Shown here: in pieces, positions 8,132 through 49,879 of the stretch | Position numbering within the stretch: position 1 is the first letter of the stretch | Layout of the letters: each line of letters starts with the position of its first letter | Source: an uncultured Chromatiales bacterium | Lineage (GTDB): Bacteria > Bacteroidota > Ignavibacteria > SZUA-365 > CAYQST01 | Assembly: GCA_964420295.1 (NCBI GenBank) | Contig: CAYQST010000010.1 | Coordinates: forward strand, 6,554-70,553 | DNA length: 64,000 bases | Direction: 5' to 3' | Made by a program: the position numbers and the translations under genes | The notes under the pieces: model-generated | The model's input: the letters and a program-made list of their open reading frames with translations, nothing else | Database searches by the model: none | Told to the model about the DNA's origin: nothing

Positions 8132-9718
8132 ATGAGTGAGGTCGTGACCATCGCCCTGCCCTGGGGCCATCGCGAAGAAGAGCTGCAAGCCGCGATCGAA
8201 ATCCGCCTCGGAGCCGGAGCCCCGTACCGCGTGCTCAAACGCAGTCTCGATGCCCGCAATCACCGCGCCATCACGGTTCTGTACTCCATCGAGCCCGAGG
8301 GCCTCGATCCCTGCGAAACCATCCTCGAGAACATCGCCCTCCGCAAATGCCGACTCGCATCCCTGTTCGGAGCCACGCCCCCCCGCGTGGTGATCGTGGG
8401 CGCGGGTCCTGCGGGACTGTTCTGCGCCTGGTGGCTGGTGCTGCACGGACTCCGCCCCATCCTGCTCGAACAGGGTCCCCCGATGCGTGAGCGCATCCGC
8501 GACATGGCCCGGTTCATGAAAACCGGCGACCTCCACCCCCTGTCCAACATCTGTTTCGGAGCCGGTGGCGCCGGGGCCTGGAGCGACGGCAAGCTCATCA
8601 CCCGCATCCGCTCTCCGTACATTCCCTTCGTGATGAAAACCTTCGTGGACCTCGGCGGTCCCGAAGACATCCGCTATCTCTACAATCCCCACCTCGGCTC
8701 CAATCGCATCCGTCGCTGCATCTCCACCATGCTCGATCGCCTGGAAGAGGAAGGAGTGTCTCTGCGCACCAATACCCAGTGGACGGGCCTGGGCGCGGCG
8801 GAAGAAGGTCGCATCGGAACCGTGTGCACCAGCGAGGGTCCCATCGAAAACGTGTCGGCCCTCTTCGTCGCCACGGGACATTCCTCCCGCCTGAGCTTTT
8901 CCCTTCTCCGCGAAGCGGGAGTGGACATGGAAGCCAAGGATTTCGCGGTGGGATTGAGGGTGGAACATCCCGCCGACACCATCAACCGCCTGATGTACGG
9001 AGAGGAATACCGGGAGCGCTATCCGGGTATCGAAACCGCCCAGTACAAATTCGCGCGCACCTGGAAGGAACCCTATCAGGGCGTGTACTCCTTCTGCATG
9101 TGTCCCGGCGGCTACATTTTGAACGCCAGCACGGGACCCGAAGGCGTGGTGACCAACGGCATGAGCAATGCCCTCAAATCGGGCCGCTTCTCCAACGCCG
9201 CCGTGGTGGCGACGGTGACTCGCGAGGATCTGGCAAAGCTCGGCTATCACGGGGTGGACGCCAGTCTCGCCTTTCAGCAGGATCTCGAGGAACGCTTTCG
9301 CGCCTCGGTCAACCGACCCGGCCAGGCTTCGGTGCTGCCCGGACAGAGACTCGCCGATTTCGTGCAGGGTCGCCCCTCGTCCTCCCTCGGTCCCGGTTCC
9401 TGCCTCAATCCCACCCTGCCCGCTTCCCTGCATCAGCTCTTCCCGCCCCATCTCTACGAAGGGCTTCGACGTGGACTGACGAGTCTCGGAGGATCTCTCC
9501 GTCGCTTCTGCGAATCACCGGAAGCCCAGGCGTTCGGTGTGGAAAGCCGCACCAGCTCACCCTATCGCCTGCCCCGCGACCCTGTCACCTTGCAGTCCCC
9601 GTCCCGTCCCCACCTCTATCCCATGGGCGAGGGAGCCGGACACGCGGGAGGGATTACCTCGGCGGCGGTGGATGGTATTCGCTGTGCACAGGCATGGATG
9701 GAAGGGAGTAAAGAGTAA
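8132..9718 (+). CDS. FAD-dependent oxidoreductase (uncharacterised FAD-dependent dehydrogenase type)
   Basis: VVIVGAGPAGL Rossmann motif, GAGGAGAWSDGKL, YSFCMCPGG, GEGAGHAGGITSAAVDG. Confidence 0.88.
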   Translation: MSEVVTIALPWGHREEELQAAIEIRLGAGAPYRVLKRSLDARNHRAITVLYSIEPEGLDPCETILENIALRKCRLASLFGATPPRVVIVGAGPAGLFCAWWLVLHGLRPILLEQGPPMRERIRDMARFMKTGDLHPLSNICFGAGGAGAWSDGKLITRIRSPYIPFVMKTFVDLGGPEDIRYLYNPHLGSNRIRRCISTMLDRLEEEGVSLRTNTQWTGLGAAEEGRIGTVCTSEGPIENVSALFVATGHSSRLSFSLLREAGVDMEAKDFAVGLRVEHPADTINRLMYGEEYRERYPGIETAQYKFARTWKEPYQGVYSFCMCPGGYILNASTGPEGVVTNGMSNALKSGRFSNAAVVATVTREDLAKLGYHGVDASLAFQQDLEERFRASVNRPGQASVLPGQRLADFVQGRPSSSLGPGSCLNPTLPASLHQLFPPHLYEGLRRGLTSLGGSLRRFCESPEAQAFGVESRTSSPYRLPRDPVTLQSPSRPHLYPMGEGAGHAGGITSAAVDGIRCAQAWMEGSKE

Positions 9719-9728
9719 AGAGTGAAGG
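9708..9728 (+). repeat. Heptamer array site A (3 units)
   Basis: GTAAAGA GTAAAGA GTGAAGG; contains the oxidoreductase TAA and runs into the next SD (AGGAGG). Confidence 0.8.
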
Positions 9729-9736
9729 AGGTTGCG

Positions 9737-11794
9737 ATGAGAACGTGGATATGGGTTTTGGTCTTGATGAGTCTGGCGGGGATGCCGATGCGGGCGCAGA
9801 CCGATTTGATGAAAAGGGCCCTGGATGTGTTGCAGCTGGATTCGGCCATGGTGGGGTATCATCCGAAACCCTCGTGGGACGCGGTGGATCGCTCCGATCC
9901 CTTTCGGCTTTCGGTGCATGACGGACTCCTGGCCCACCCCTTCGATCTTCCCACTCACGTTACCGATCTTCTTTTTCAGTACCGCACGGCCCTTACCGCC
10001 GACAGCGCCAATCTGCCCGGATATCGCTGGCCCCAGGTGAGGACTCTCGCTGCCCTTCTCGTGCATTCCGCCCGAAACCTCGGCCTGGACATCGGCAAGG
10101 TGGGTTTCGATTACACGCCTCGTGTGGATTCCACTGAACCCCTGGTGGCGGCTTGGAGGAATCTCTGCATCGCCGCCGGAGCGCAGACAGGGTCCACCAT
10201 CGTCTATCCCCTGCCCACCCAGCATTGGTCCGACGACGAATCCGCTCTGCGTGCCGCCGTGAAGGGTCTGCCCCGGGACTTCGCGCTCGCCCTGGCCGAG
10301 TTGGTGGAGGCCTGTCGCGAGGCCATCGGGTGGAGGCAGAACGCGTTGCGCGCCATTCCCCGGGATCGCTGGGATCACATCTATCGCTCGACGATTCTCG
10401 AACGGTCCCAGTGCGACGCCCACGCCTTCGATCAGGTGGTGTACGACGCCGCCCTGGCCTGCGACGGAGCCAGCATGAGCTATGGCGCCATCCTCCTGGC
10501 CCAGACGGTGGAAAAGGTCCTGCCCCGCCTCGCCGCCTTCGCGGGACGATCCCTGACCCTGGACCTGCCCACGCCCTACGGACGCATTGTCGTGGCGGGG
10601 GCGGAGGCCAACCTGCATGCCTATTCCGACGCCATGATCCTCATCGATCTGGGCGGGAACGATCGGTATCTGGGACCTACGGCCGCTTCGTCTCCCTCCC
10701 TGCCCCTGTCCCTGGTGCTCGATCTGGCCGGAGACGACAGCTATGAATGCGCGGCCCGCGACCTTCCCGCCCAGGGCGCCGGTGTGCTGGGCTACGGGAT
10801 GCTCGTGGATCTGGCGGGCGACGATCGCTACGGCACCGTGACCTTCGGGCAGGGCTGCGGGCGCTTCGGCGTGGGGGTGCTCGACGATCGCGAAGGCGAT
10901 GATCAGTACCGGGCCGAGGGTTTTGCCCAGGGTGCGGGGATGTACGGAATGGGACTTCTCGTCGACCGCCAGGGCGGAGATCGCTACGATCTGGTGTATT
11001 ACGGACAGGGCTATGGCTTTAGCCGCGGGCTGGGGCTTCTGGCCGATGTGCGGGGCGACGATCGCTACACGGCTGACGACGAAACCCTGACGCACGTGGG
11101 AGATGAAACGCCCGAGCACAACGAAAGCAACGCCCAGGGCTTCGGCTCGGGGCGGCGCGGGGATCACACCGACGGGCATAACATGTCCGGCGGCATCGGT
11201 ATTCTCACCGACCTCGACGGCAACGACCAATACTCCGCCGGTGTGTTCGCCCAGGGCAGCGGCTATTGGTTTGGCACCGGCATCCTCAACGACGAAAAGG
11301 GAGACGACCGGTACCGCGGGGTGTTCTTCAACCTGGGCGCGGCGGCCCATTTCGCCATCGGGGCCCTCATCGATCAGCGAGGAAACGACCAATCCGAGCT
11401 GGTACGCACTCTGGGATTCGGCGCGGCCCACGACGGATCGGCGGCCATCTATTTCGATCTGGAAGGGAATGACTCCTACACCATGACCCGGGGCGATGCC
11501 CGATCCGCCAGTCTTGGCGCGGCCCTCAACAGCTCCTTCGCGCTCTTCCTCAACCGGGGTGGAAACGACCGGTACGCGCCCATGGGCGTGAGCTTCGGAC
11601 ATGCTCAATCCCGGCGCGGCGGGGAATATGCCCGACTCGCACCCACGGTGGGACTCTTCTTCGACCTCGGGGGCGAAAACACCTATCCCTCGGGATTCGA
11701 GGCGAAGCCCGGCAAGGAATGGCAGTCGGTGCCCCGGGATCCCGCTCTGGGCATTCATGCCTACGGAATAGACGTCCCGTCCTCAAGCCGCTAG
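9737..11794 (+). CDS. Secreted protein with about 12 hxDxxGxDxY repeats
   Basis: SD AGGAGG; signal peptide MRTWIWVLVLMSLAGMPMRA; repeats LIDLGGNDRY, VLDLAGDDSY, LVDLAGDDRY etc. Confidence 0.8.
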   Translation: MRTWIWVLVLMSLAGMPMRAQTDLMKRALDVLQLDSAMVGYHPKPSWDAVDRSDPFRLSVHDGLLAHPFDLPTHVTDLLFQYRTALTADSANLPGYRWPQVRTLAALLVHSARNLGLDIGKVGFDYTPRVDSTEPLVAAWRNLCIAAGAQTGSTIVYPLPTQHWSDDESALRAAVKGLPRDFALALAELVEACREAIGWRQNALRAIPRDRWDHIYRSTILERSQCDAHAFDQVVYDAALACDGASMSYGAILLAQTVEKVLPRLAAFAGRSLTLDLPTPYGRIVVAGAEANLHAYSDAMILIDLGGNDRYLGPTAASSPSLPLSLVLDLAGDDSYECAARDLPAQGAGVLGYGMLVDLAGDDRYGTVTFGQGCGRFGVGVLDDREGDDQYRAEGFAQGAGMYGMGLLVDRQGGDRYDLVYYGQGYGFSRGLGLLADVRGDDRYTADDETLTHVGDETPEHNESNAQGFGSGRRGDHTDGHNMSGGIGILTDLDGNDQYSAGVFAQGSGYWFGTGILNDEKGDDRYRGVFFNLGAAAHFAIGALIDQRGNDQSELVRTLGFGAAHDGSAAIYFDLEGNDSYTMTRGDARSASLGAALNSSFALFLNRGGNDRYAPMGVSFGHAQSRRGGEYARLAPTVGLFFDLGGENTYPSGFEAKPGKEWQSVPRDPALGIHAYGIDVPSSSR

Positions 11795-11900
11795 GTTCGC
11801 ACCGTGCGACGCCGGAATCGAAGAACGCGGCCTCGGTTGGTGATGCGCTCCACTTTCCGGATATTTGCTTTTCGAATCTCACGTGTAACGACAGGATCAC

Positions 11901-13385
11901 ATGGCACAACAGCAATCCATTCTCGATAAAATCGTCTCCCTGGCCAAACGGCGCGGGTTCGTGTTTCAATCCTCCGAGATTTACGGGGGACTCAACGGCT
12001 GCTGGGACTACGGTCCTTTGGGCGTGGAACTGCTCCGCAACATCAAGGAAAGCTGGTGGAAGGCGATGACCTATCGCGACGATGTCGAGGGAGTGGACGC
12101 GTCCATTCTCATGCATCCCCGGGTATGGGAGGCCTCGGGACACGTGGAAAACTTTACCGATCCCATGGTGGACTGTCGCGAATGCAAGAGCCGGTATCGG
12201 TTGGACGTTCTCTACGAGGGCATGAACGAGAAGAGACGGAAGAAGATCGTGGAGGCCTGGCTCGAGACCTGCGAGCCGGCTCGTCGCGAGCAGCTTCGAG
12301 CTCTCAGTGCCGAAGAGATCCAGGAAGAGGCAGGCAATGCCCTGGTGGACGATGCCGTGGTCTTCGAAGCCCTGAACACGAAGGAGCTTCTCCCCTGTCC
12401 CAACTGCGGGCGGACGGCGACCTTTACCCTGCCGCGAAAATTCAACCTGATGTTCAAGACCTTCGTGGGTCCGGTGGAAGACAGCAGCGCCGTGGTGTAC
12501 CTCCGTCCCGAAACGGCCCAGGGCATCTTCGTCAACTTTCTCAACGTAGCCCAGGCCACGCGTCAGAAGGTCCCGTTCGGCATCGCCCAGATCGGCAAGG
12601 CTTTTCGCAACGAGATCAACACCAAGAATTTCCTCTTCCGCACCCGTGAATTCGAGCAGATGGAAATGCAGTTCTTCGTGCGTCCCGGCACGGACGACGA
12701 GTGGTACGAGGACTGGCGGCAGAGGCGGATGCAGTGGTTCGTGGAAAACGGCATGACGGCCTCCCGGCTCCGTTACCATCCGCACGCGCCCGAAAAGCTG
12801 GCGCACTACGCCAAGGCGGCGGTGGACATCGAATACCAGTTTCCCTTCGGCTGGGGAGAGATCGAAGGCATTCACAATCGCACGAACTTCGATTTGAGTC
12901 GGCACATGGAGTATTCCACCAAGAGCATGGAATACTTCGACGACGAAACGAAGGAGAAGTACGTCCCCTTTGTCATCGAGACCTCAGCCGGAGCCAGTCG
13001 CTCCTTCATGGCCTTTCTGGTGGATGCCTACGAAGAAGAAGTGTTGGAAAAGGAAACCCGCGTGGTGTTGCGCCTCCATCCCCGTCTTGCCCCCTTCAAG
13101 GCGGCCGTGCTTCCGCTGGTCAACCGCGACGGTATGGACGAGATCGGTGCGAAACTACATCGTGAATTGCAGCGCGACGTCAAGGTCTTTTACGACGACA
13201 GCGGCTCCATCGGTCGCCGGTATCGTCGTCAGGATGAAATCGGCACCCCCTGGTGCTTCACGATCGACTCCCAAACCCTCGAGGACGGCACCATCACCGT
13301 GCGCCATCGCGACGCGATGCACCAGGAGCGCATCGCCCTGGCCTCCTGCCGTCGCTTCCTCCTCGACGGCCTCGCCACGCCTTAA
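11901..13385 (+). CDS. glyQS: Glycine--tRNA ligase, homodimeric type
   Basis: KRRGFVFQSSEIYGG, YLRPETAQGIF, FRTREFEQME, IGRRYRRQDEIGTP. Confidence 0.97.
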   Translation: MAQQQSILDKIVSLAKRRGFVFQSSEIYGGLNGCWDYGPLGVELLRNIKESWWKAMTYRDDVEGVDASILMHPRVWEASGHVENFTDPMVDCRECKSRYRLDVLYEGMNEKRRKKIVEAWLETCEPARREQLRALSAEEIQEEAGNALVDDAVVFEALNTKELLPCPNCGRTATFTLPRKFNLMFKTFVGPVEDSSAVVYLRPETAQGIFVNFLNVAQATRQKVPFGIAQIGKAFRNEINTKNFLFRTREFEQMEMQFFVRPGTDDEWYEDWRQRRMQWFVENGMTASRLRYHPHAPEKLAHYAKAAVDIEYQFPFGWGEIEGIHNRTNFDLSRHMEYSTKSMEYFDDETKEKYVPFVIETSAGASRSFMAFLVDAYEEEVLEKETRVVLRLHPRLAPFKAAVLPLVNRDGMDEIGAKLHRELQRDVKVFYDDSGSIGRRYRRQDEIGTPWCFTIDSQTLEDGTITVRHRDAMHQERIALASCRRFLLDGLATP

Positions 13386-13407
13386 CCCTTTACTCTTTAC
13401 TCTTCAC
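13380..13407 (-). repeat. Heptamer array site B (4 units)
   Basis: Minus strand reads GTGAAGA GTAAAGA GTAAAGG GTTAAGG immediately after the stop of the 13408-13740 gene. Confidence 0.8.
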
Positions 13408-13740
13408 TCAGTACGGATACTTCGCCTTCCTCCGCAGTCGTGCTTCGAGGGAGTCGATCACCCGACGGGCCTGGGGCCCGAGTTCGGGGTGTTCCTCCGC
13501 GATCTTACGGGCATCCTCGATATAGGCCCGGGCCAGACTGCGCGGATAGGGAAGAGCGTAGTTCATGGCGTCATTCATGTAATACTCCAGCTTTTCCCGA
13601 GGCGACTTCGGATTCGCGGCGGGAGCCCCCTCCGCATTCGGGTCGGGTCGGGAGGGGAAGAGCAGGACGTAAGAGAGGAACAGAACGACGGCAATGCCGA
13701 TGACATGGATGAGATAGCCGGGACGTTTTTTCACGAACAC
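13408..13740 (-). CDS. Hypothetical membrane-anchored protein, 110 aa
   Basis: N-terminal TM LIHVIGIAVVLFLSYVLLF followed by a helical domain. Confidence 0.7.
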   Translation of the reverse strand: MFVKKRPGYLIHVIGIAVVLFLSYVLLFPSRPDPNAEGAPAANPKSPREKLEYYMNDAMNYALPYPRSLARAYIEDARKIAEEHPELGPQARRVIDSLEARLRRKAKYPY

Positions 13741-13792: not shown

Positions 13793-13889
13793 GAAAAGGG
13801 TGGAAGGGGGGGGGTGAATGCGTGAATGGGGGAATGCGTAAATGGCCGCGTTCTCTTCCTCTTAACCCTTCACTCTTTTCTCTCTTGAC
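13793..13889. repeat. Composite palindromic element, site C: purine arm, octamer core, inverse heptamer arm
   Basis: GAAAAGG GTGGAAGG, G9, GTGAATGC GTGAATGG GGGAATGC GTAAATGG, then TCTTAAC CCTTCAC TCTTTTC. Confidence 0.7.
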
Positions 13890-13995
13890 TTTTCTCCGGC
13901 TCTTTCCCAAGTTTCGGCATTGAATTTCCGACGTCATGAAAGTATCCCGCCATGGGATCAGTCCACTACCTTTCACCATTTCGCACGAGGCCATT

Positions 13996-14661: not shown

Positions 14662-16088
14662 AAACGAGAGATTTCAGGAACATGTCGGTCCCGGACGGGA
14701 TCGACATGTTCTCCACAGCCTTCGACGGTCCCTTTGGTTGGCCACAGAGCAACGCAGCGAGTATGGAACTCCGTCGATCCGATGAGAAGCAAGCAGCTCC
14801 ATGTATCTATTGCTCCGATCTCTTCGATGATTTGGATCTCGACGCACCTCTCCTCACGGCGAATTGCTATGGAGGACAGGGGCTGGGAATGTGGGTGGAT
14901 AGCTACAATTGGCCGGGAGGTGGTCGTCATTGGCAGGAGCTGAATACTGATGGCAAGAAGTATGATTATTTATTTACGCTTCGACTATTGGGTGTACGAA
15001 GCTATATTCTTGGCTCAGAAGATCCTGTTGAATTTCAGAGAATATCATTATTGTCTCGTCAACGAGATGCCAGTTTGCAACTCGGCGAGGTTATATCTGG
15101 ACGTTGGATTGATGGTAACTTAGGGTGGGATCCTATTCGTTTTTCGCCAGAGTCTGGAATAATAACTAGTTTCTATCATGATGAACCGCTAGATACAATG
15201 ATGAATGATGCAAAGGGTGGCGATGCAAACGCAGCGCACCATTGGGAAAGATATCATCCTCTGTTGGATACCTATCTGGCGAATCTCCTTCAATTCCTTT
15301 GTACAATCGATTTTCAAAGCAGCTTCGTCTTTTCCACCTACGACATACTCCTTGTGCAGGATTTTCTCAGTCGACTTCAAACTACTACAGTACCCTGTGG
15401 ACACAATGCGGGAAGATCTATGCTTGATCTTGTGCGAGATGGGACTATCCGAATATACCCGGATTTCTACAGCGAACAAGGGAAGAGGGAGTTCTATCGA
15501 CAACTTCAAGCCACTTATCATATGTATGGCATCCCTACGCAGTGGATCCGGCCTTTCATCAGCACGGGAGCTAACCTGTGCGAATACGAAGAAAAGCGGT
15601 TTGAAACCCAGCCGGTTTCCATCATATGTGAGACGATCTTCCACCAAACGATGGGGTTTGGAGCCCCATACCTGTATACCTCAGGAGGTTGGACCCAGGA
15701 AAAGTGGGACTCGTTGTTCTTTCTCTCCTGGATCCTTGGATGCATCGAACCGGATCGTGTTTCGGGAAGCGGACGCCAGGGTTGTTCCCTGACCCGCCCC
15801 ACCTCGCTTCGCGGCCTGCTTCGACTGCTATGCAATATGTTTCCCATCCAACCGACACGAACCCGGGAGGATGAGCGAATACGATTCCTGGAGTGTTTCT
15901 CGCTGTATAGGGATTATCCGCATCCGCCGGAGAATCCTCAAACCTGTCTTCCCTGTTGCGTAAATGCCGTCGGAGAATCGATCCCCATTGATACCGTCCA
16001 CTATCGAGCGCTTCGCGCGAATTGTGCGACACTTCCAAAATGCTGCAAAGATGTGAACTTGTGTAGAACCACCTCTCCCAATGCATGA
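14658..16088 (+). CDS. Hypothetical Cys-rich protein, 476 aa, AT-rich core
   Basis: Long ORF in AT-rich DNA with ATGA overlaps at both ends; PCIYCS, TCLPCCVN and PKCCKDVNLC clusters. Confidence 0.75.
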   Translation: MKTRDFRNMSVPDGIDMFSTAFDGPFGWPQSNAASMELRRSDEKQAAPCIYCSDLFDDLDLDAPLLTANCYGGQGLGMWVDSYNWPGGGRHWQELNTDGKKYDYLFTLRLLGVRSYILGSEDPVEFQRISLLSRQRDASLQLGEVISGRWIDGNLGWDPIRFSPESGIITSFYHDEPLDTMMNDAKGGDANAAHHWERYHPLLDTYLANLLQFLCTIDFQSSFVFSTYDILLVQDFLSRLQTTTVPCGHNAGRSMLDLVRDGTIRIYPDFYSEQGKREFYRQLQATYHMYGIPTQWIRPFISTGANLCEYEEKRFETQPVSIICETIFHQTMGFGAPYLYTSGGWTQEKWDSLFFLSWILGCIEPDRVSGSGRQGCSLTRPTSLRGLLRLLCNMFPIQPTRTREDERIRFLECFSLYRDYPHPPENPQTCLPCCVNAVGESIPIDTVHYRALRANCATLPKCCKDVNLCRTTSPNA

Positions 16089-18502
16089 GGCCACCAATGA
16101 AACCGACCCTGTGGATCACCATTCTCGTTGCCTTGGTGAGCGCGCCCCTGCCCTGCCAGGCCCAGTGGCGCTGGCTCTACCCTTCCCTGCGCGGAGAGTT
16201 TCGGTCCTGCGTCATGGCGAGCGCCGATCATGCCTACATCCTGACCGCCTCCGACAGCGTGCTGGAGACCAGGGATCAGGGGCGTACCTGGACCACGATG
16301 GAGGTGGACGGACTGCCTACTTTCGGCGTGTTCTTTCGCCCGTCCCTTGGATTCCTGGTGGTGCGGGACCGGGGTGCGGGGTCCAATCTCCTGCTATCCT
16401 GGCATATCCTGAAGACCTCGAACGGGGGACAGAGCTGGCATCGCCTGCCTCCCACCTTCGGGGATGTGGTGGATGTGTACTTCGGCACGGATTCCCTGGG
16501 CTGGGTGACCCTGCGCACGGGAGCGGGTATGCACACGACGGACGGAGGGCAAACATGGGAACCGAACGCGCCGGGGACCCCACCGATCATACGCTGGATG
16601 GATCGGAACACCTGGTATGGATACCGGCATTATTCCACTGAAGTCGGACGAAGGGACAGTGTGCTCTGGTACTCTTTCGATGGAGGCGCCACTTGGAAAA
16701 AAAGAACGTTTACCGCGTTTCCAAGAATAGGTACTGGCTATACACTGCAATCTGAGTGTCTGTCTCTTACACATACTTCCACGGGAACGTTTTTAGCTCT
16801 AAATCATGTATATGCACTTTCGCCTAGCATGCAGACCTTTTTTACATCATTCAGTATTGCCCGATCGAACGACTCAGGACGTACATGGAGTATGGAATAT
16901 AATCCCGTTGTCTTTCAGACAACGGGAAGTAGCCAACGGGCGGAAGGTCAGCATAACAGAGCGTTTCCATATCGATTTCTTTCCTTGGGAGATTCGGTCG
17001 TGGCGGTTGTTTCGGATATTGGAAGGAACTGGCTTCGATTCGTGAATGGGGCCCAAGCGTCCATCACTATCGATATCCTATTTGATGAATTCACAAATTG
17101 CGGCTACGATTCAGACCATGAGGGACGTGTGATCGCGGTTTCGTCTTCGCGAAAGCGCATACAATGGAGTACTGATGTCGGAAACACCTGGACGTGGCGA
17201 AATGACGAGGAGATGATCAACACAAGCATGGTCCGGGCACTCCTTTCTTTTCATTCCACGGGACTCGTGATCGGGTATGCTCCGTACTACGTGGCTCTCT
17301 CGAAGAATGGCTACCTGGTGTTCGATGGGGTGCAAAAGATTCACGATAGCACGAGTAGCATGCATATCGTCGAAGATGGGCCCTGTCAAACTCTTGATGA
17401 TCATCGCGCCCTGCTGGCAAATACAGGATCGAGCACATATCAGATGTTTGAGTTAACAGACAACAAGGAGTGGTTCCCGATCACTTCATACTTTAATAAG
17501 CCAACACCCGTCCAATCACCGCTCGGCACATCCTACTATCTTGGAGCTGGACGTGCCGTTATTGCCGCCGCGGATGGCGTGATTTATGCCCATGTGGAAG
17601 ATACCTGGGAATGGAAGAGAGTGGATTCCGTTATTGATTTCGCTGGATCTGAAGCGGCGAGTCAACGTATGAGATTTTTTTCTCGCGATGAAGGAGTCTG
17701 TGTTGACTATGAACAGGGCTCCTATCGGAGTAGAACGGGACTTGATAGCCTTGTGTATTTTCTTACCGTGAGAACGACCTCGGATGGAGGAAAGTCTTGG
17801 ACCAGAATACAAACTCCTCTTAAGCAGTTCATCCAACTCGTACAGCCATCACTTGCAAACAAATCCTCGCTCGGGATTCTGAATCGTCATTCCTATCTCA
17901 CCGGGAACCCCGATGGAATTCGCAAAACCACGGATTGGGGACATACATGGACCTTAGTTTGTCCCGCGACGGAAGGGATCTTTTCCATTAGCGCGGTGGA
18001 TTCGCTTCGCGCTTTTGCCACGACGGAGCACGAACTACTAGGTACGATTGATGGAGGACAAAGGTGGTCACGTATCACACCACGAGATGCATCGGGACGT
18101 GTTCTTAGTGCGGGAGTCTTTACGAAGGTCTTCACCACGCCCTCCGGCTTCGTGCTCGCCTGCCTGCCGGATGGCTTCATCGGAGGCATGGCGGATTCCA
18201 TCCTCACAGGGGTGGACCGTACGGAGCCCGTGTTCCCCACCGACCCGCTTCGCATCTACCCAAACCCCGGTGTTGCGGGTGGGACTGTCCGCATCCGGTT
18301 TACACAGCAGACAGCGGGGAGTGCCTCGATTACCCTGTACTCCTTGCTGGGCCAGCATCTGCATCACGAGATCCTCGACGACCGTCACGTAGGCCCCCGT
18401 GAGGTTACTCTGTGCACCGCCGGCCTCCCGCCCGGACTCTACTTTGTCGCGGTGTCCACGCCCGAAGGAGTGAGGGTGGGGAAGGTGGTGGTGGGAAGGT
18501 GA
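16085..18502 (+). CDS. Secreted BNR/Asp-box beta-propeller protein with T9SS C-terminal sorting domain
   Basis: Signal peptide; repeated (S/T)xDxGxTW motifs; C-terminal IYPNP...ITLYSLLGQ...LPPGLYFV...KVVV. Confidence 0.88.
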   Translation: MRPPMKPTLWITILVALVSAPLPCQAQWRWLYPSLRGEFRSCVMASADHAYILTASDSVLETRDQGRTWTTMEVDGLPTFGVFFRPSLGFLVVRDRGAGSNLLLSWHILKTSNGGQSWHRLPPTFGDVVDVYFGTDSLGWVTLRTGAGMHTTDGGQTWEPNAPGTPPIIRWMDRNTWYGYRHYSTEVGRRDSVLWYSFDGGATWKKRTFTAFPRIGTGYTLQSECLSLTHTSTGTFLALNHVYALSPSMQTFFTSFSIARSNDSGRTWSMEYNPVVFQTTGSSQRAEGQHNRAFPYRFLSLGDSVVAVVSDIGRNWLRFVNGAQASITIDILFDEFTNCGYDSDHEGRVIAVSSSRKRIQWSTDVGNTWTWRNDEEMINTSMVRALLSFHSTGLVIGYAPYYVALSKNGYLVFDGVQKIHDSTSSMHIVEDGPCQTLDDHRALLANTGSSTYQMFELTDNKEWFPITSYFNKPTPVQSPLGTSYYLGAGRAVIAAADGVIYAHVEDTWEWKRVDSVIDFAGSEAASQRMRFFSRDEGVCVDYEQGSYRSRTGLDSLVYFLTVRTTSDGGKSWTRIQTPLKQFIQLVQPSLANKSSLGILNRHSYLTGNPDGIRKTTDWGHTWTLVCPATEGIFSISAVDSLRAFATTEHELLGTIDGGQRWSRITPRDASGRVLSAGVFTKVFTTPSGFVLACLPDGFIGGMADSILTGVDRTEPVFPTDPLRIYPNPGVAGGTVRIRFTQQTAGSASITLYSLLGQHLHHEILDDRHVGPREVTLCTAGLPPGLYFVAVSTPEGVRVGKVVVGR

Positions 18503-18609
18503 AGTGTGAAGAGAAAAGAGTAAAGGCGTGTATACGTGAATAGGTGAATGAGTGAATACGATAATGGGTGAAGGAGCGCCCCCTTTACTCTTTCCCCTTT
18601 ACTCTTCCC
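18499..18609. repeat. Composite palindromic element, site D
   Basis: GTGAAGT GTGAAGA GAAAAGA GTAAAGG / GTGTATAC GTGAATAG GTGAATGA GTGAATAC GATAATGG GTGAAGG / CCTTTAC TCTTTCC CCTTTAC TCTTCCC; first unit holds the upstream TGA. Confidence 0.8.
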
Positions 18610-18675
18610 TCCTCTTGCCTTTTTCACTATCTCCATTTTTCCTACATTTCGCCTCTTTCATCACACAGGACCATC

Positions 18676-37960: not shown

Positions 37961-37963
37961 TCC

Positions 37964-40161: not shown

Positions 40162-41111
40162 CAGTCGATCAGCTTGCCGATGCGACTGAAGCGCAGGGAG
40201 CCGAGTTTCTTGAAAATGTTGAAGAAAGGTACATCGGGATCGAAGGAGAGGTAGACGAGGATGGGTGTTCCCACCACATATTCCTTCGGGATCAGGCCCC
40301 AGAAGCGGCTGTCGAGGGAGCGATCGCGGTTGTCTCCCATGCCGAATACATAGTCACGTTCCACGGTGTATCGCGTGGCGGGTTTGTCATCGATATAGAT
40401 GGTGCTATCCACCGTGCGAACCGCGTGTCCTTCTCTTTGGATGAGGATGGCCCATTCATGCAGGTTTTCCAGGGACAGGGGGATCTGGTCTCCCTTTCCG
40501 GGGATGACGAAGGGACCCCAATTGTCCTTGTTCCAGGGCTTTCCCTTCGGAAAGATGGAGGGATCGATGGTACCTTCGGGCAGAATGGTGTAGTCCTCGA
40601 AGTGCACGCCCGGAGCCGACGGGAGAATCTGCCCGTTGACGCGCACTCGTTTATTGACGATCTGCAGGGTATCGTGGGCCGTGGCCACGCAGCGTTTGAG
40701 GTAGAACATAAACTGCCCGGATTTGAGCTCGTCCCGATCGCCCGGATAGATAAACACGATGACGTCGCCCTTTTTCGGGTCGCGGAATCCGGGCACGCGG
40801 AAGTACGGAATTTCGACTTCGGTGCCGAACAGGCCCAGCAGGGGAATGGTGGGTGGAGTGGTGCCTCCGTACAGGAATTTGTTGACGAAGAGCATGTCTC
40901 CGGCCATCACGGTGTATTCCATGGAAGGGGTGGGTACCTGAAACGAAGCCACGAGGAAGCTGTTGAGCACGATCACCGCGCCCAGGGCGATGCCGATGGT
41001 TTTCAGGAATTCGAGCACCCGATCCTTCAGGGGGAGCTGTTTCAGATCCTTCTTTTTCCGGCCCGACAGAATGTCCTTGGCGGAACGGGTTTTGTTCTGT
41101 TGTCCGAGCAT
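40161..41111 (-). CDS. lepB: Signal peptidase I (first copy)
   Basis: VPTPSMEYT, YLKRCVA, GDNRDRSLDSRFWG; TGATG overlap with the next copy. Confidence 0.93.
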   Translation of the reverse strand: MLGQQNKTRSAKDILSGRKKKDLKQLPLKDRVLEFLKTIGIALGAVIVLNSFLVASFQVPTPSMEYTVMAGDMLFVNKFLYGGTTPPTIPLLGLFGTEVEIPYFRVPGFRDPKKGDVIVFIYPGDRDELKSGQFMFYLKRCVATAHDTLQIVNKRVRVNGQILPSAPGVHFEDYTILPEGTIDPSIFPKGKPWNKDNWGPFVIPGKGDQIPLSLENLHEWAILIQREGHAVRTVDSTIYIDDKPATRYTVERDYVFGMGDNRDRSLDSRFWGLIPKEYVVGTPILVYLSFDPDVPFFNIFKKLGSLRFSRIGKLID

Positions 41112-41131
41112 GGGGATTCCGGTTGTGGGGA

Positions 41132-42931
41132 TTAATCTTCCATCGAGAGAATGGCGAGGAAGGCTTCCTGGGGAATTTCTACCGAGCCGACCTGCTTCAT
41201 GCGCTTCTTCCCTTCCTTCTGCTTTTCGAGCAGTTTTCGCTTCCGGGAAATGTCGCCGCCGTAGCATTTGGCGGTGACGTTCTTGCGCAGGGGCTTTACG
41301 ACGTCGCGCGAGATGATTTTGTTTCCAATGGCACCCTGAATGACCACTTCGAACATCTGGCGGGGGATGAGCTGTTTGAGCTTGCTGCAGAGTTTGCGGC
41401 CCCATTCGTAGGACTTGGACCGATGCACGATGCTGCTGAGGGCGTCGACGGGTTCTCCGTTGAGGAGGATGTCGAGCTTGATAAGGTCCGATTCGCGGTA
41501 CTCATGAAAGTCGTAATCGAAGGAGGCATAGCCGCGGGACACCGATTTCAGCTTGTCGTAGAAGTCGAAGATGATTTCCGACAGTGGGAGTTCGTAATGC
41601 ACGTCGGCGCGGGTGGGATCGATGTAGGTGGTGTTGATATACACGCCCCGTCGGTCCATGCACAGCTTCATGATGTTGCCCAGGTATTCGGTGGGCACGA
41701 TGATCTGGGCCTTGATGTAAGGCTCCTTGATATGGTCGATCTTTCCGGCGTCGGGCAGGAAGGAGGGATTGTCCACGATCACCTCTTCACCCGTTTCGCG
41801 GATCACCACGATGTATTCCACGTTTGGAACGGTGGTGATGATGGACTGATTGAACTCACGCTCGAGGCGCTCCTGCACGATTTCCATGTGCAGGAGTCCC
41901 AAAAACCCGCAGCGGAATCCGAATCCCAGGGCGGCCGAAGTTTCGGGTTCGTACACGATGGAGGAGTCGTTGAGCTTGAGTTTCGAGAGGGAGTCCCGGA
42001 GTTCCTCGAATTCCTCGCTCACCGTGGGATAGAGTCCGCTGAACACCATCGGCTTGACGGCCTTATATCCGGGCAGGGGGTTCGGAGCCCCGTGTTTTAC
42101 CGTGGTGATGGTGTCGCCCACCTTGGTGTCGGCCACGTCCTTGACCCCGCTGATCAGGTAGCCGACGTCACCGGCCCGAAGGACGCCGGTGCGCTTCTTT
42201 TTCATGAGCAGGACCCCGACTTCCTCGGCCTCGAATTCCTTGTCCGTCGCGAAGAAGCGAATGTGATCGCCCTCGCGCAGAGTGCCTTCCATCACGCGAA
42301 TATAGGTGACGGCGCCCCGGTAGCTGTCGAACACCGAATCGAAGATGAGGGCCTGGAGAGGGGCCTCCGGATTTCCAACGGGAGGAGGGATGCGTTCGAC
42401 GATGGCGGTGAGCAGCTCGGGGATGCCGATACCGGCTTTGGCGCTGACGGAGATGCAGTCCTCGGGCTTGCACCCGATCAGGTCGACGATGCTCTGGCGC
42501 ACGGTATCGATCATCGCGCTGGCCAGGTCCACCTTGTTGATGACGGGGATGATGTCGAGTCCCGCCTCGATGGCGAGGTACAGGTTGCTGATGGTTTGGG
42601 CCTCGATGCCCTGGGTGGCGTCGACGACGAGGATGGCGCCTTCGCAGGCATTGAGGGATCGTGACACCTCATAGGCGAAGTCCACATGGCCCGGTGTGTC
42701 GATGAGATTGAGGGTGTACTCCTGTCCATCGCCATGGTGATATTTCATCTGGATCGCGTGGAGCTTGATCGTGATGCCCCGCTCCTGTTCCAGATCCATG
42801 TCGTCGAGGATCTGGTTCATGGTGAAATCCCGCTTGGACACCGTTTCGGTGATTTCGAGCAGACGATCGGCGAGGGTGGATTTCCCATGATCGATGTGGG
42901 CGATGATACAGAAGTTTCGAAGGAGTTGCAT
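41132..42931 (-). CDS. lepA: Elongation factor 4
   Basis: [52 protein letters not shown]. Confidence 0.98.
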
Positions 42932-45750: not shown

Positions 45751-46284
45751 ATGCCTAAAACTCCATCCGATATATCCGACTCCTCCACACCGCCACCTCG
45801 CTGGTTGGTGCTCTGTGTTCGTCCCCGCTACGAGCGGCGCGTGGATCTTCGATGTCAGCAGGCGGGAATCACGCGTTTTCTCCCTCTGCGCATGGAAGTG
45901 CGGCAGTGGTCCGACCGCAAGAAGATGGTGGAAGTTCCTCTCTTTCCCGGCTACCTGTTCGTTCGGGTTCGGGAACGAGAGCGCATCGCCGCCCTCGAGA
46001 TTGACGGCGCCCTCCACTATGTGGTGTTCGGAGGTCGGCCGGCCGTGGTGCCCGCCGCCGTAATGGATGGACTCCGCGCCCTGGTGGCCAGCTCCTGTCC
46101 GGTGGAGGCCCAAGCCCTTCCCCTGCAGCCCGGACGCCGCATTCGCGTGCTTCGGGGTCCCCTGTGTGGCGTGACCGGCGAGCTTCTCGAAACGAGAGGC
46201 AGCCACCGCCTTTTGATTCGCATCGATGCCATCGGCCAGGCAGCCGGGGTGGAGGTGGGAACCGACGACATTGAAATTCTGTAA
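45751..46284 (+). CDS. UpxY/NusG-family transcription antiterminator
   Basis: WLVLCVRP..E, RQWSDRKKMVEVPLFPGYLFV, KOW-like GRRIRVLRGPLCG; heads the polysaccharide locus. Confidence 0.9.
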   Translation: MPKTPSDISDSSTPPPRWLVLCVRPRYERRVDLRCQQAGITRFLPLRMEVRQWSDRKKMVEVPLFPGYLFVRVRERERIAALEIDGALHYVVFGGRPAVVPAAVMDGLRALVASSCPVEAQALPLQPGRRIRVLRGPLCGVTGELLETRGSHRLLIRIDAIGQAAGVEVGTDDIEIL

Positions 46285-46302
46285 CACTTCACATCGATCA
46301 TC

Positions 46303-47259
46303 ATGAAAAAAGCACTCATCACTGGAATCACGGGTCAGGACGGCAGCTATCTGGCGGAACTCCTTCTTGCGAAGGGCTATGAGGTTCATGGCATCGTTCG
46401 TCGCGTGGCGATCGAGGACCATGAACACCGGCTCGGTCGGATCAAGCATCTGCTCAGCGACATCCGCATCCATCCCGCTTCCCTGGAAAGCTACCCGAGT
46501 CTGTTCAACGTGGTGCGCGCCGTGGAGCCCGACGAATGCTACCACCTGGCGGCGCAGAGCTTCGTGAGTTATTCCTTCGAGGACGAGTTTTCCACCTTCA
46601 ACACCAACATCAATGGCACCCATTACATGCTGTCGTCGATCAAGCAGGTGGTACCCGACTGTCGGTTCTACTTCGCTGGTTCGAGCGAGATGTTCGGCAA
46701 GGTGGAGGAAGTCCCGCAGAACGAAAACACCCGCTTCCATCCTCGTTCCGCCTACGGTATCACCAAGGTGGCTGGCTACGAGCTGACGCGGAATTATCGC
46801 GAAGCCTACGGTTTGAAGACTGCCAACGGGATTCTGTACAATCACGAATCTCCCCGTCGCGGTTTCGAATTCGTCACCCGGAAGATTACCTCCACCGTTG
46901 CCCGGATCAAGAAAGGGCAGGCGAAGGAACTCCGACTGGGCAATCTCGATGCCAAGCGGGACTGGGGCTATGCGAAGGAGTATGTGGAGGCGATGTGGAT
47001 GATCCTTCAGCAGGAACAGCCTCAGGACTTTGTGATCAGCACCGGCGAGACCCACAGCGTGCGCGAATTCGTCGAAATCGCGTTTTCCAGCGTGGGCCTG
47101 AACTGGCAGGACCATGTCGTCGTCGATCCCATTCTCTTCCGCCCCGCCGAAGTGGATATCCTCCTCGGCAACCCCGCCAAGGCCGAACGAGAGCTCGGGT
47201 GGAAGTCCTCGACCTCGTTTCGGGAATTGGTGGAGTTGATGGTAATGAGTGAAGAGTAA
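46303..47259 (+). CDS. gmd: GDP-mannose 4,6-dehydratase
   Basis: ALITGITGQDGSYLAE, PRSAYGITK, NHESPRRG, LGNLDAKRDWG. Confidence 0.96.
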   Translation: MKKALITGITGQDGSYLAELLLAKGYEVHGIVRRVAIEDHEHRLGRIKHLLSDIRIHPASLESYPSLFNVVRAVEPDECYHLAAQSFVSYSFEDEFSTFNTNINGTHYMLSSIKQVVPDCRFYFAGSSEMFGKVEEVPQNENTRFHPRSAYGITKVAGYELTRNYREAYGLKTANGILYNHESPRRGFEFVTRKITSTVARIKKGQAKELRLGNLDAKRDWGYAKEYVEAMWMILQQEQPQDFVISTGETHSVREFVEIAFSSVGLNWQDHVVVDPILFRPAEVDILLGNPAKAERELGWKSSTSFRELVELMVMSEE

Positions 47260-47318
47260 AGAGTGAAGAGTAAAGAGTGAAGAGTAAAGAGTAAAGAGTA
47301 AAGAGTTAAGGGTAAAGT
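47249..47318 (+). repeat. Heptamer array site E (10 units)
   Basis: (GTGAAGA GTAAAGA)x3, GTAAAGA x2, GTTAAGG, GTAAAGT; the gmd TAA lies in unit 2. Confidence 0.92.
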
Positions 47319-47360
47319 CGCCCTCCTTCCCGACCATTTTCGTATTCATACAGGTAAGTC

Positions 47361-48557
47361 ATGAACGTTCCTCTTCTTGATCTCAAGCCGCAGTATCAGG
47401 CCCTCAAGGCCGAACTGGATTCCGCTCTCCTTCGTGTTGCCGAGAGCCAGTACTTTATTTTGGGTCCCGAAGTCAAGCAGCTCGAGGCCAATATCGCCGA
47501 GTATGTCGGCACGAAGCATGCCATCGGCGTGTCCTCGGGCACCGATGCCCTTCTCCTTGCTCTGATGGCCCTGGGCATTGGGCCGGGTGACGGAGTGATC
47601 GTGCCCACCTTCTCCTTTTTCGCGACGGCCGGGGTGGTGTCGCGGCTGGGGGCGACTCCGATTTTCGTGGACAATGATCCGGTGACCTTCAACATCGATC
47701 CGAAGGCCGTGGAGGCCGCGCTGGAGTGTTACGCGCATTCCGACATCACGGTCAAGGCCATCACGCCCGTACATCTGTTCGGGCAGGCGGCAGACATGGA
47801 TGGCATCATGGCCATCGCCGCGCAGCACGGCCTGAAGGTGGTGGAAGACTGTGCCCAGGCCATCGGGGTGCAGTACAAGGACGGACGCCGCGTCGGGAGC
47901 ATCGGCGACGTGGGGTGTTTCTCTTTCTTCCCGAGCAAGAACCTCGGATGTTTCGGAGACGGTGGCATCATCACGGTGAACGACGACGCTCTGGCTCACA
48001 TGATCGAGATCATGCGGGTGCATGGCGGCGAGCCCAAGTACTACCACAAGGTGATCGGCGGCAATTTCCGCATCGATGCCATCCAGGCGGCGGTGCTGAA
48101 CGTGAAGCTACCTCATCTGGATAGTTGGCACGAGGGACGTCGGCGTAACGCGGCCTTCTATACCAAGCATTTCGTGGAAGCGGGACTTGCCGAAGGAACC
48201 GGAAGAACCGCGTTCGACGACAAGAATGCCGTGCTTCTGCCCGCCAGTGTGTACGAGGATCAGGGTCACGCCCATCCCTACCTGCACATCTACAACCAGT
48301 ACTGCATCCGCGTACAGGATCGGGACGGACTCATCGATCACTTGCGCGCCCATTCCATCGGATGCGAAATCTATTATCCGGTTCCCTTCCACAAGCAGGA
48401 ATGCTTCCAGGACGTGCCCTCGTCCCGCGGTACCTATCCGCAGGCGGACGCGGCAGCCGGGTCGATCCTCGCCCTGCCGATTTTTCCGGAATTGACGGAA
48501 GAGCAGTTGGGGTATGTGGTGGAGGTGGTAAGGATGGGGGTAAAGAGTAAAGTGTAA
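47361..48557 (+). CDS. DegT/DnrJ/EryC1/StrS aminotransferase (WbpE-like)
   Basis: VEDCAQAIG, FSFFPSKNLGCFGDGG (PLP lysine), GGNFRIDAIQAA. Confidence 0.93.
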   Translation: MNVPLLDLKPQYQALKAELDSALLRVAESQYFILGPEVKQLEANIAEYVGTKHAIGVSSGTDALLLALMALGIGPGDGVIVPTFSFFATAGVVSRLGATPIFVDNDPVTFNIDPKAVEAALECYAHSDITVKAITPVHLFGQAADMDGIMAIAAQHGLKVVEDCAQAIGVQYKDGRRVGSIGDVGCFSFFPSKNLGCFGDGGIITVNDDALAHMIEIMRVHGGEPKYYHKVIGGNFRIDAIQAAVLNVKLPHLDSWHEGRRRNAAFYTKHFVEAGLAEGTGRTAFDDKNAVLLPASVYEDQGHAHPYLHIYNQYCIRVQDRDGLIDHLRAHSIGCEIYYPVPFHKQECFQDVPSSRGTYPQADAAAGSILALPIFPELTEEQLGYVVEVVRMGVKSKV

Positions 48558-48574
48558 AGAGTAAAGCGTAAAGC
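48540..48574 (+). repeat. Heptamer array site F (5 units), left arm of the four-helix-bundle cassette
   Basis: GTAAAGA GTAAAGT GTAAAGA GTAAAGC GTAAAGC; encodes the last residues and the stop of the aminotransferase. Confidence 0.9.
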
Positions 48575-48590
48575 AACGGGGGAGGTTGCA

Positions 48591-48962
48591 ATGGAAATCA
48601 AATTTCGACGATCTCATACGAAGCTGTTGGTTTGGAAAAGGGCGATCGAGCTCGTTGTTCTGGTATATCGTACGACGGAGCACTTTCCTCGTAGCGAAAG
48701 CCTTGGTCTTGTTACGCAGATGCGGCGAGCCGCCGTGTCCATCCCAAGCAATATTGCCGAAGGTGCTGGTCGCGGCTCCACAAAGGAGTTTCTTCGACAC
48801 CTCCGCATCGCACGGGGATCCCTCAGTGAGCTGGAGACCCAGATGTTCATTGCCCAAGAACTCACGCTCTGCATCCAACCCGAAATCACTCTCTCGCTCT
48901 GTCACCAAGTATCACGACTCCTGAGCGGCCTCATCAATCGTCTCAATCGAGCAGATCCCTAA
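48591..48962 (+). CDS. Four helix bundle protein (23S rRNA intervening-sequence protein family)
   Basis: LLVWKRAIEL, FPRSESLGLVTQMRRAAVSIPSNIAEGAGR, FLRHLRIARGSLSELETQ. Confidence 0.95.
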   Translation: MEIKFRRSHTKLLVWKRAIELVVLVYRTTEHFPRSESLGLVTQMRRAAVSIPSNIAEGAGRGSTKEFLRHLRIARGSLSELETQMFIAQELTLCIQPEITLSLCHQVSRLLSGLINRLNRADP

Positions 48963-48991
48963 CCCTTCACCCTTCACCCTTCACTCTTTAC
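48957..48991 (-). repeat. Inverse heptamer array (5 units), right arm of the cassette
   Basis: Plus strand CCCTAAC CCTTCAC CCTTCAC CCTTCAC TCTTTAC, starting across the four-helix-bundle stop. Confidence 0.9.
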
Positions 48992-48995
48992 CATC

Positions 48996-49862
48996 TTGAA
49001 AGGCCTCATCCTTGCCGGGGGCTCCGGCACCCGGCTCTATCCGTTGACGCGGGTGGTGAGCAAGCAGCTCCTTCCCGTGTACGACAAGCCGATGATCTAC
49101 TATCCCCTCACCACGCTGATGCTGGCGGGGATTCGGGAGATCTGCATCATTTCCACGCCCACGGACCTGCCACGATTTCGGGATCTGCTCGAAGATGGAT
49201 CCCGGTTCGGGGTGTCGTTTACGTATGTGGTGCAGGAGAGTCCCGACGGACTAGCTCAGGCCTTCATCCTCGGAGAGGAATTCATCGGGGGAGAGCCGAG
49301 CTGTCTGATTCTGGGGGACAATCTCTTTCATGGGTCACACCTGGCGCGCACCCTGCAGGAGGCCTCGCAGTTGACGGAGGGGGGCTGCATCTTCGCCTAT
49401 CAGGTGAGGGATCCCGAACGGTATGGCGTGGTGGAGTTCGATGCCGGCGGACGGGCGGTTTCCATTGAAGAAAAGCCCACGCGGCCCCGATCGACCTTTG
49501 CCGTGCCGGGCATCTACTTCTATGATGGCACGGCGTCGGCGCGGGCCCGCGCCCTTCGACCCTCGGCGAGAGGAGAGCTGGAAATCACCGATCTGAATCG
49601 GGTCTATCTCGAGGAAGGGCATCTGCAGGTGAAGATTCTCAGCCGGGGCACGGCCTGGCTCGACACGGGCACCCACGAATCCCTGCTTCAGGCCTCGCAG
49701 TTCATCCAGACGATTGAATTACGTCAGGGACTCAAGATTGGCTGTCCCGAGGAGGTGGCGTATCGGATGGGATTCATCGATCGGGAAACCCTGAGAAAGG
49801 CCGGGGAAGAGATGAGAAAGAACGAGTATGGGCTGTATTTGTTGGAAGTGAGTGAAGAGTAA
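48996..49862 (+). CDS. rfbA: Glucose-1-phosphate thymidylyltransferase
   Basis: [35 protein letters not shown]; TTG start. Confidence 0.96.
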
Positions 49863-49879
49863 AGGGTGAAGAGTGAAGG
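49852..49879 (+). repeat. Heptamer array site G (4 units)
   Basis: GTGAAGA GTAAAGG GTGAAGA GTGAAGG; holds the rfbA TAA and ends in the rfbC SD. Confidence 0.88.

Follow-up and report, generated by a model that had tools for sequence, protein, structure and literature searches.

The question raised by this stretch of DNA, a window of 64,000 nucleotides (nt) in contig CAYQST010000010.1 from an uncultured member of the Bacteroidota/Ignavibacteria (closest GlyRS matches 79-81% identical), is what a heptanucleotide of the form GTRAAGN is doing in tandem arrays at the ends of its genes. Dispersed heptamers were described in 1990 as short tandemly repeated repetitive (STRR) sequences and again in 2015 in Xanthomonas/Nostoc and in Beggiatoa, and their function is not agreed. 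GTRAAGN is another member of this known kind of repeat, which also takes in the GGGAATC and TAACTGA families. We think, with somewhat more confidence than doubt, that the GTRAAGN arrays are a genome-specific dispersed heptamer family made of the arms and orphan arms of stem-loop elements of the intervening sequence (IVS) type, which bracket genes of the PF05635 family. PF05635 is among the most abundant small protein families of unknown function. The window ties dispersed heptamer repeats to this family, and a single rule of position and topology holds for the arrays across phyla.

How many arrays are there, and how are they built? When three GTRAAGN units in a row are sought with a tolerance of two mismatches, the window yields 26 matches, where shuffles that preserve dinucleotides predict 0.03, and Tandem Repeats Finder reports arrays of period 7, in 3 to 11 copies, at every site. 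Scanned unit by unit, the 64 kb hold nine arrays, five on the plus strand and four on the minus strand. The initial annotation had listed six; all of these are present where it placed them, and its count was too low because three minus-strand arrays (13860-13880, 18582-18609 and 48958-48991) had been overlooked. Once these are added, 18499/18582 and 48540/48958 turn out to be inverted pairs, each with its purine arm first. The element occurs in the window in three states: a complete cassette (48540-48991), a hairpin that holds no open reading frame (ORF) (18499-18609) and five orphan arms. All nine arrays obey the gene-adjacency rule published for the Xanthomonas repeats.

In the complete cassette, a gene lies exactly between the inverted arrays at 48540 and 48958. 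It runs on the plus strand from 48591 to 48962, is intact and encodes a protein of 123 residues that matches PF05635 (E 3.6e-33), TIGR02436 (E 4.4e-34) and the structure of Xanthomonas campestris XCC0516 (PDB 2GSC, E 1.2e-26). PF05635 is the four-helix-bundle family of 23S rRNA intervening-sequence proteins, also called S23p. The upstream purine arm (48540..48574, plus strand, five units) stands 16 nt 5' of the ATG, the gene carries a GGAGG of its own, and its TAA lies inside the downstream pyrimidine arm (48958..48991, minus strand), which is composed of four units (48964-48991) and a GTTAGGG from 48958. The whole cassette is located between degT and rfbA, its pyrimidine arm ending 5 nt before the TTG start of rfbA (48996). 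The two arms are inverted copies of one unit family and are paired in both the minimum free energy and the centroid folds; judged by eye, no obvious target-site duplication is found at the cassette borders. The ORF-less hairpin is made of a 5' purine arm (18499..18526, plus strand, four units), a loop region of 8-nt GTGAATNN repeats (18528..18572, plus strand) and a 3' pyrimidine arm (18582..18609, minus strand, four units), and the region 18485-18625 folds at -51 kcal/mol (z -4.35).

Is this bracketing peculiar to the window? We fetched 80 metagenomic loci that carry relatives of the window's PF05635 protein at 44-62% identity, 70 of them with both flanks. In 69 of the 70, an inverted repeat spans the gene and scores higher than 95% of shifted-window controls (median 19 vs 8), so that nearly every sampled PF05635 gene is bracketed in this way. 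A clear tandem signal is present in about four of ten flanks (32/75 on the left, 35/77 on the right), and most of the arms that score as tandem have a period of 7 (29/32 upstream, 30/35 downstream). Upstream arms contain much G and little C (41% and 12%), and downstream arms show the mirror image (42% C, 8% G). The units themselves differ from locus to locus (GGTGAGT, AGTGGGC, GTGGTTA, CAGGATT, CAGTTGT and others), and an AGT core is common to 32 of 50 arm units where 7.6 are expected. The arrangement is also seen in named isolates: Vreelandella sp. TE19 has about 17 copies of ACTCACG downstream of its PF05635 gene, and Desulfomarina profundi has a matching layout. No statement of a general association between PF05635 genes and heptamer arms was found in the literature searched, and we regard it as a useful lead that deserves follow-up.

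The genomic surroundings of these cassettes deserve a separate remark. Homologues of the window's gmd, degT, rfbA or rfbC stand beside the cassette in 16 of 85 PF05635 loci, and cassettes recur at fixed junctions of nucleotide-sugar operons: directly before rfbA, as in the window, in four loci (L357, L360, L376, L408), and downstream of gmd in L352, L356, L393 and L439.

The arrays can also be followed from their own side, outside the window. With one genome taken per species, a search for four exact GTRAAGN units returned at least 117 loci from very diverse phyla, with G+C contents from 34 to 74%; the locus statistics given here rest on the 117 listed genome loci plus the window (118 loci) and hold among the matches listed, where copy number ranges from 3 to 29. 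Of 148 arrays, 50 have a complementary partner downstream of the purine arm at a distance of up to 600 nt; upstream, the figure is 1 of 157, and in controls 1 of 161. Read on either strand, the hairpin topology is always purine arm first, and the loops have a median length of 64 nt.

The arrays are equally constrained in where they sit relative to genes. A sense ORF of at least 100 codons ends at the 5' edge of 81 of 134 solo arrays, compared with 13% of random positions, and an antisense ORF ends at the 3' edge of 24 of 124. Within co-directional gene pairs, 44 arrays are in the sense orientation and 17 antisense. The initial annotation had proposed, from the window, that the arrays abut or overlap gene 3' ends with the purine strand as the sense strand, and these counts extend that proposal across phyla. 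By simple gene calls, the median distance to the nearest gene is 28 nt at the purine strand's 5' edge and 91 nt at its 3' edge (p=0.003). Arrays are also found in convergent and divergent spacers and in antisense.

Three Prevotellaceae loci share a nested element of the form (GTGAAGA)4-AATTTGCTGCCGCC...GGCGGCAGCAAATT-(TCTTCAC)n (L031, 1905-2008; L042, 7207-7373; L051, 7401-7522). In L031 the flanking sequence, read by eye, apparently places it between two tRNA genes.

How do these elements compare with those already described? A close structural parallel is with the S23p-bearing IVSs of 23S rRNA, as in Coxiella and Leptospira. In the Coxiella IVS, a terminal stem of 28 bp encloses the S23p ORF, with GACAGAT heptamers, two or three according to the strain, upstream of the ORF; RNase III cuts at the first repeat, and the RNA element persists although its ORF is in decay (Warrier et al. 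2016, PMC4990558). The window cassette shares with these IVSs a PF05635 ORF between terminal inverted repeats and tandem heptamers in the arm 5' of the ORF, and both have a sporadic phylogenetic distribution, which suggests mobility; in the IVSs, heptamer copy number varies among strains (PMC4990558). Unlike them, the cassette is located between protein genes of a polysaccharide operon and not in helix 45 or 25 of an rRNA, and its arms consist wholly of heptamers and are poorly complementary to each other. Excision by RNase III, demonstrated for the rRNA IVS (PMC4990558), would be a matter of analogy for the window element.

Among dispersed repeats, the Xanthomonas GGGAATC and Nostoc GGGGA(C/T)T families are close parallels. 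On average, 28 nt separate them from their 5' neighbour and 160 nt from the ORF that follows (Rehm et al. 2015, PMC4692102), and in Xanthomonas they overlap stop codons, form 70-75 convergent pairs per genome and vary in length between close species (PMC4692102). Their function was given as unknown, and a link to S23p/PF05635 is unmentioned in that study (PMC4692102). The GTRAAGN arrays resemble them in their tandem 7-nt units, typically in about four copies, at many dispersed intergenic sites per genome, in their closeness to the 5' neighbouring ORF (28 nt), in their frequent convergent inverted pairs and in the variation of length and sequence among relatives. Two differences stand out: GTRAAGN has no G-tracts and cannot form the G-quadruplex proposed by Rehm et al. 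(PMC4692102), and sense and antisense use is roughly equal in Xanthomonas (PMC4692102) whereas solo GTRAAGN arrays favour sense by 44 to 17.

The TAACTGA repeats of marine Beggiatoaceae, cyanobacteria and Bacteroidetes provide stops in all frames and lie directly upstream of start codons (MacGregor 2015, PMC4679880). They too are intergenic heptamers with all-frame stops in the forward direction, some overlap the upstream stop, and they have a patchy distribution across phyla. Those repeats, however, sit a few nt upstream of starts, mostly without a Shine-Dalgarno sequence, whereas GTRAAGN is tied to the end of the upstream gene; moreover, only one indirect (inverted) repeat was reported for TAACTGA (PMC4679880). 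The likeness to cyanobacterial STRR heptamers noted in the initial annotation is apt, both being dispersed tandem heptamers of unknown role, and the STRR sequences differ. Finally, like repetitive extragenic palindromic (REP) sequences, bacterial interspersed mosaic elements (BIMEs) and the miniature transposable elements with inverted repeats known as MITEs, the GTRAAGN elements are short intergenic inverted-repeat elements at gene 3' ends that far outnumber any protein-coding master copy. The arms of REPs and MITEs differ in being unique sequence and in being served by known transposases (RAYT or those of insertion sequences, IS), of which none is evident here. A literal search of the literature with the repeat sequence returned only unrelated primer matches.

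We envision the following scheme. Elements settle in short spacers at gene ends, where their unit number presumably changes by slippage. The purine arm always stands 5' of its partner, and solo arms would be tolerated mainly when the strand that enters the mRNA is the G/A-rich, C-poor one. Since the unit holds TAA or TGA at a period of 7, any ORF that reaches an arm ends there, and since the unit is rich in purines, its last copy can merge with an adjacent Shine-Dalgarno sequence. When transcribed, paired arms would form long duplexes, and such duplexes may be substrates of RNase III, so that the polycistronic RNA would be cut, by analogy with the 23S rRNA IVSs that carry S23p. RNase III processing of paired arms is, on this analogy, the most likely molecular activity of the elements. 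As for the purine-first topology and the sense bias of solo arms, they might be the outcome of selection against transcripts that expose a C-rich arm able to load Rho, which we offer as a conjecture.

Several observations weigh against this scheme. The cassette is not inside an rRNA gene. Its own two arms pair poorly (duplex free energy -26.7 kcal/mol; z -0.7 relative to shuffles of matched composition), which makes cleavage by RNase III at this site doubtful. The pyrimidine arm (48958-48991) in fact pairs better with other arrays of the same operon, its best predicted partner being the 49852 array (49852-49883; -51.8, z -6.2), followed by the array at 47242-47318 (-38.6, z -3.9); the modelled energies make alternative long-range arm pairings inside one operon transcript possible. 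From the side of the arrays, a PF05635 gene is present in only 3 of the 117 listed genome loci and in none of 77 viral loci that carry GTRAAGN arrays. The link runs from gene to arms and not from arrays to gene. The arrays that do adjoin PF05635 genes, which speak for the link, are in Campylobacterota loci L004 and L014 and in a third locus, L091. In viral contigs, composition-matched heptamers form arrays about as frequently as GTRAAGN, and plain slippage could thus make much of the recurrence across phyla. Moreover, the exact placement of orphan arms at native stop codons is left unexplained by an IVS-type origin.

We also considered, and rejected, the notion that every array marks a cassette: among the ORFs near arrays in the 117 listed genomes, phmmer found one match to the window's PF05635 protein and a small iterated hidden Markov model (HMM) three. 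All-against-all clustering of array-adjacent ORFs returned mostly spurious antisense translations of the arrays themselves.

Could arrays and genes belong together more closely than our scheme requires? A larger version would have heptamer arrays and PF05635 genes form one widespread, undescribed element system, in which a pentameric Avd-like ring binds, propagates or protects the arms, ORF-less hairpins and orphan arms are non-autonomous copies, and STRR, GGGAATC, TAACTGA and the rRNA IVSs are all members. We hold this idea tentatively and would rather doubt it than assert it; if true, it would explain a 35-year-old puzzle, that of dispersed heptamers in bacterial genomes. A rival reading, in which the arrays are putative cis sites for a trans-acting protein, one protein per heptamer, seems unlikely to us as an account of the arrays. 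The protein would most plausibly be the PF05635 pentamer, or else a single-strand binder of the cold-shock or S1 type, and orphan arms and hairpins would relate to it as MITEs do to a transposase. Such sites would fit the nearly constant embedding of PF05635 genes in such arms (69/70), the shared AGT(G) core of the arm units, and two pairs of loci (L398/L403 and L366/L374) in which related PF05635 genes in unrelated contexts have related units. In addition, among the 50 PF05635 loci whose left arm could be scored, 6 also have other arrays built from the unit of their own cassette close by; nucleic-acid binding is established for the homologous Avd of diversity-generating retroelements (PMC10053308), and CspB is cited in PMC4679880 as binding heptamer repeats. 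Against this stand the numbers: there are far more arrays than PF05635 genes, and in many loci no such gene lies within 8 kb. A correlation between gene and unit is also expected from simple co-inheritance, and in Coxiella it is the ORF that decays while the RNA element persists (PMC4990558).

Could the arrays, on the contrary, need no element at all? They would then be plain heptanucleotide microsatellites made by slippage, the heptamer being the most slippage-prone unit in bacteria and purine-rich versions persisting in spacers. Viral contigs of IMG/VR were scanned for GTRAAGN and for five composition-matched heptamers. GTRAAGN yielded 77 stretches, and the controls gave 29 (GAARTGN), 33 (GGARATN), 43 (GAGRTAN), 69 (GATRGAN) and at least 120 (GARTAGN). 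Two of the controls, GAARTGN and GARTAGN, are rotations or near relatives of the target (GAATAGT = GTGAATA), and the other three lack the AGT core. GTRAAGN is not exceptional in abundance, and heptamer arrays of many sequences are common. The proposal of one mobile element spread across phyla was dropped for this reason, given that the controls without an AGT core suffice to make the abundance of GTRAAGN unexceptional.

These similar numbers speak for slippage, as do the copy-number range of 3 to 29 among the matches listed and the fact that units and periods differ among close relatives; heptamers are also reported as over-represented among bacterial simple repeats in work cited by PMC4679880 and PMC4692102. 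Nevertheless, slippage by itself is an improbable explanation. It leaves unaccounted for the presence of a single unit family at nine places within 64 kb, the strict order of the paired arms with the purine arm first (50 vs 1), the asymmetric distance to the flanking genes, the bracketing of PF05635 genes (69/70) and the common AGT core (32/50 vs 7.6 expected).

What, then, is the evidence for slippage and turnover in this lineage? The short arrays are identical in seven contigs of the same strain and in another strain that is nearly identical (5 single-nucleotide polymorphisms in 1.7 kb). Same-strain short-read assemblies break within the 11-unit array (47242-47318). No unit-number variation is demonstrable in this set of seven contigs and one strain, where the long array only ends contigs. 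Such arrays break short-read assemblies and may be mistaken for CRISPR-like arrays. Contigs L118, L119 and L436 begin within the 11-unit array (window 47263-47290), and the first unit of L436, at the contig edge, reads GTAAAGA as against GTGAAGA in the window, which is either an artefact of the edge or true variation in the order of units.

Turnover is seen among relatives. Two of them, with GlyRS 79% identical, keep the convergent pair of glyS and a small ORF (the latter 41% identical), and the spacer of this pair holds a different hairpin together with arrays of 8 nt. In a third relative, heptamers of other sequence and an 8-mer are found elsewhere, and such repeats are almost absent from three relatives. 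The position of an array can persist while its unit, its period and its very presence turn over fast.

The 8-nt arrays are found beside 7-nt arrays in the window as well as in its relatives: GTGAATNN in the window (13812-13845 and 18528-18572), and CCTTTTCA/GTAAAAAG in the glyS spacer of relatives (L126, 11493-11652; L433, 9600-9624). The window array at 13812..13845 (plus strand, GTGAATGC type, about four copies) adjoins a 7-nt array in a divergent spacer, between a minus-strand start at 13740 and a plus-strand start at 13936. The 7-nt array is a short minus-strand arm (13860..13880) of three units, GAAAAGA GTGAAGG GTTAAGA.

A further explanation came from the initial annotation, which had suggested that the arrays are a portable stop-and-restart linker or that they inserted and overwrote native 3' ends. 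How do the genes of the window actually end? On the plus strand, the gene of an FAD-dependent protein (8132-9718, Pfam) has its TAA (9716-9718) in unit 2 of the orphan purine arm at 9708..9728 (plus strand; GTAAAGA GTAAAGA GTGAAGG). The gene of a BNR-repeat protein with a type IX secretion system (T9SS) sorting domain (16085-18502, Pfam) has its TGA (18500-18502) in unit 1 of the hairpin's purine arm. The TAA of gmd (46303-47259, Pfam; stop 47257-47259) is in unit 3 of the longest array, the 11-unit orphan purine arm at 47242..47318 (plus strand), and that of the DegT-type aminotransferase (47361-48557, Pfam; stop 48555-48557) is in unit 3 of the 48540 array. Finally, rfbA (48996-49862, plus strand, TTG start) has its TAA (49860-49862) in unit 2 of the orphan purine arm at 49852..49879 (plus strand, four units). 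The protein endings quoted in the initial annotation (SKE*, GR*, SEE*, KSKV*, SEE*) are correct, with the stops located in array units.

To these are added the PF05635 gene, glyS (11901-13385, plus strand; Pfam assigns it to the class II tRNA synthetases, and its homologues identify it as glycine-tRNA ligase) and a small conserved ORF on the minus strand (13408-13740), for a total of eight genes whose annotated ends are set by arrays. The array at 13380..13414 is an orphan arm on the minus strand, with four units up to 13407 and then a partial GTACTGA unit to 13414; it occupies the entire spacer of the convergent pair of glyS and the small ORF, whose TGA (13408-13410) is within it. In glyS and the PF05635 gene, the TAA is shown on the opposite strand by a terminal GTTARGG unit: it lies in an antisense GTTAAGG unit for glyS (13383-13385) and in an antisense GTTAGGG unit for the PF05635 gene (48960-48962). 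That three consecutive units close all three frames, as had been claimed, is simple arithmetic, each unit containing TAA or TGA and the period being 7.

Have these ends been overwritten? GlyRS has the length of its orthologs, and the T9SS sorting domain matches its Pfam model to the final position, 2 residues ahead of the stop. Against solved homologues, the RfbA alignment reaches residue 289 of the 293-residue Escherichia coli enzyme, and that of Gmd ends about 8 residues short of the end of the Pseudomonas aeruginosa enzyme. With alignments so near to complete, the arrays coincide with native C-termini and contribute no more than the final two to five residues. Overwriting can thus be upheld for the last few codons only, and the C-termini of the genes that stop in arrays are, as judged by alignment, essentially native.

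For the restart, GTGAAGGAGG followed by ATG is indeed found at 9722-9739 and at 49873-49886. The last unit of the 9708 array continues into GGAGG (9727-9731), 5 nt before an ATG at 9737, and the last unit of the 49852 array continues into GGAGGG ahead of the ATG of rfbC (49884-50456, plus strand, start at 49884). A linker under selection, which stops the ribosome in all frames and hands it to a Shine-Dalgarno sequence at the array end, would account for these two arrays that merge into GGAGG 5 nt before ATG, for the six sense-strand window genes that stop in array units, for the sense-strand bias at gene 3' ends and for a mild enrichment of stop triplets in the G-rich arms of PF05635 loci (28/50 units vs 37% expected, p=0.005).

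Beyond the window, however, the restart half finds no general support. An ATG-initiated ORF within 60 nt downstream is found for 31 of 159 arrays (19.5%) and for 221 of 1180 control positions (18.7%), that is, without enrichment. A Shine-Dalgarno core stands at the array end in 17 of 159 arrays and is followed by an ORF within 25 nt in 4, and the window itself supplies 3 of these 4. The next gene lies a median of 91 nt from the array 3' edge, arrays are present in convergent and divergent spacers and in antisense too, 17 of the 50 related arm units of PF05635 loci have no stop triplet on either strand, and one-third of arrays are hairpin halves. Thus, of the linker claim, the supply of stop codons stands, while the Shine-Dalgarno endings are largely local to the window, and we consider it quite unlikely that the arrays were selected for this role. 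The stop codons and the occasional Shine-Dalgarno part are probably a real local consequence of what the arrays are, and not their selected function.

Two other readings can be set aside at once, that of a G-quadruplex, because units such as GTGAAGA and GTAAAGA have no run of three G, and that of a CRISPR, because the arrays have no spacers. In a figure legend, a large survey of CRISPR names '23S rRNA IVP' as one of the proteins newly linked to CRISPR arrays or to adaptation modules (PMC10910872). Heptamer arms near genes of such intervening-sequence proteins (IVPs) might be what CRISPR array finders picked up there, and we mention it as a lead only.

Scans for other kinds of signal in the window were negative where the arrays are concerned. 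Rfam (at the gathering threshold) and tRNA scans gave no match and no rRNA. None of the array arms coincides with a site that resembles a terminator; the scan gave only a small inner stem (18566-18581), and terminator sites in the window are at or under the number expected from shuffles. A sigma-70 promoter scan gave nothing tied to the arrays.

Among the neighbouring genes, the hairpin is followed on the plus strand by a cyclophilin gene (18676-19506, Pfam), which starts 3' of it. The genes gmd, DegT aminotransferase, rfbA and rfbC belong, with further genes, to a polysaccharide operon with a NusG-like head gene. This head gene is of the UpxY/RfaH type (45751-46284), and the operon contains four of the nine arrays. 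Elsewhere in the window, two adjacent genes of S26 signal peptidases lie on the minus strand (39118-40161 and 40161-41405), and a tandem repeat of another period, 21 nt in 4.8 copies (40021-40120), is present in the 5' part of the second S26 signal peptidase gene, where it would encode a 7-residue repeat.

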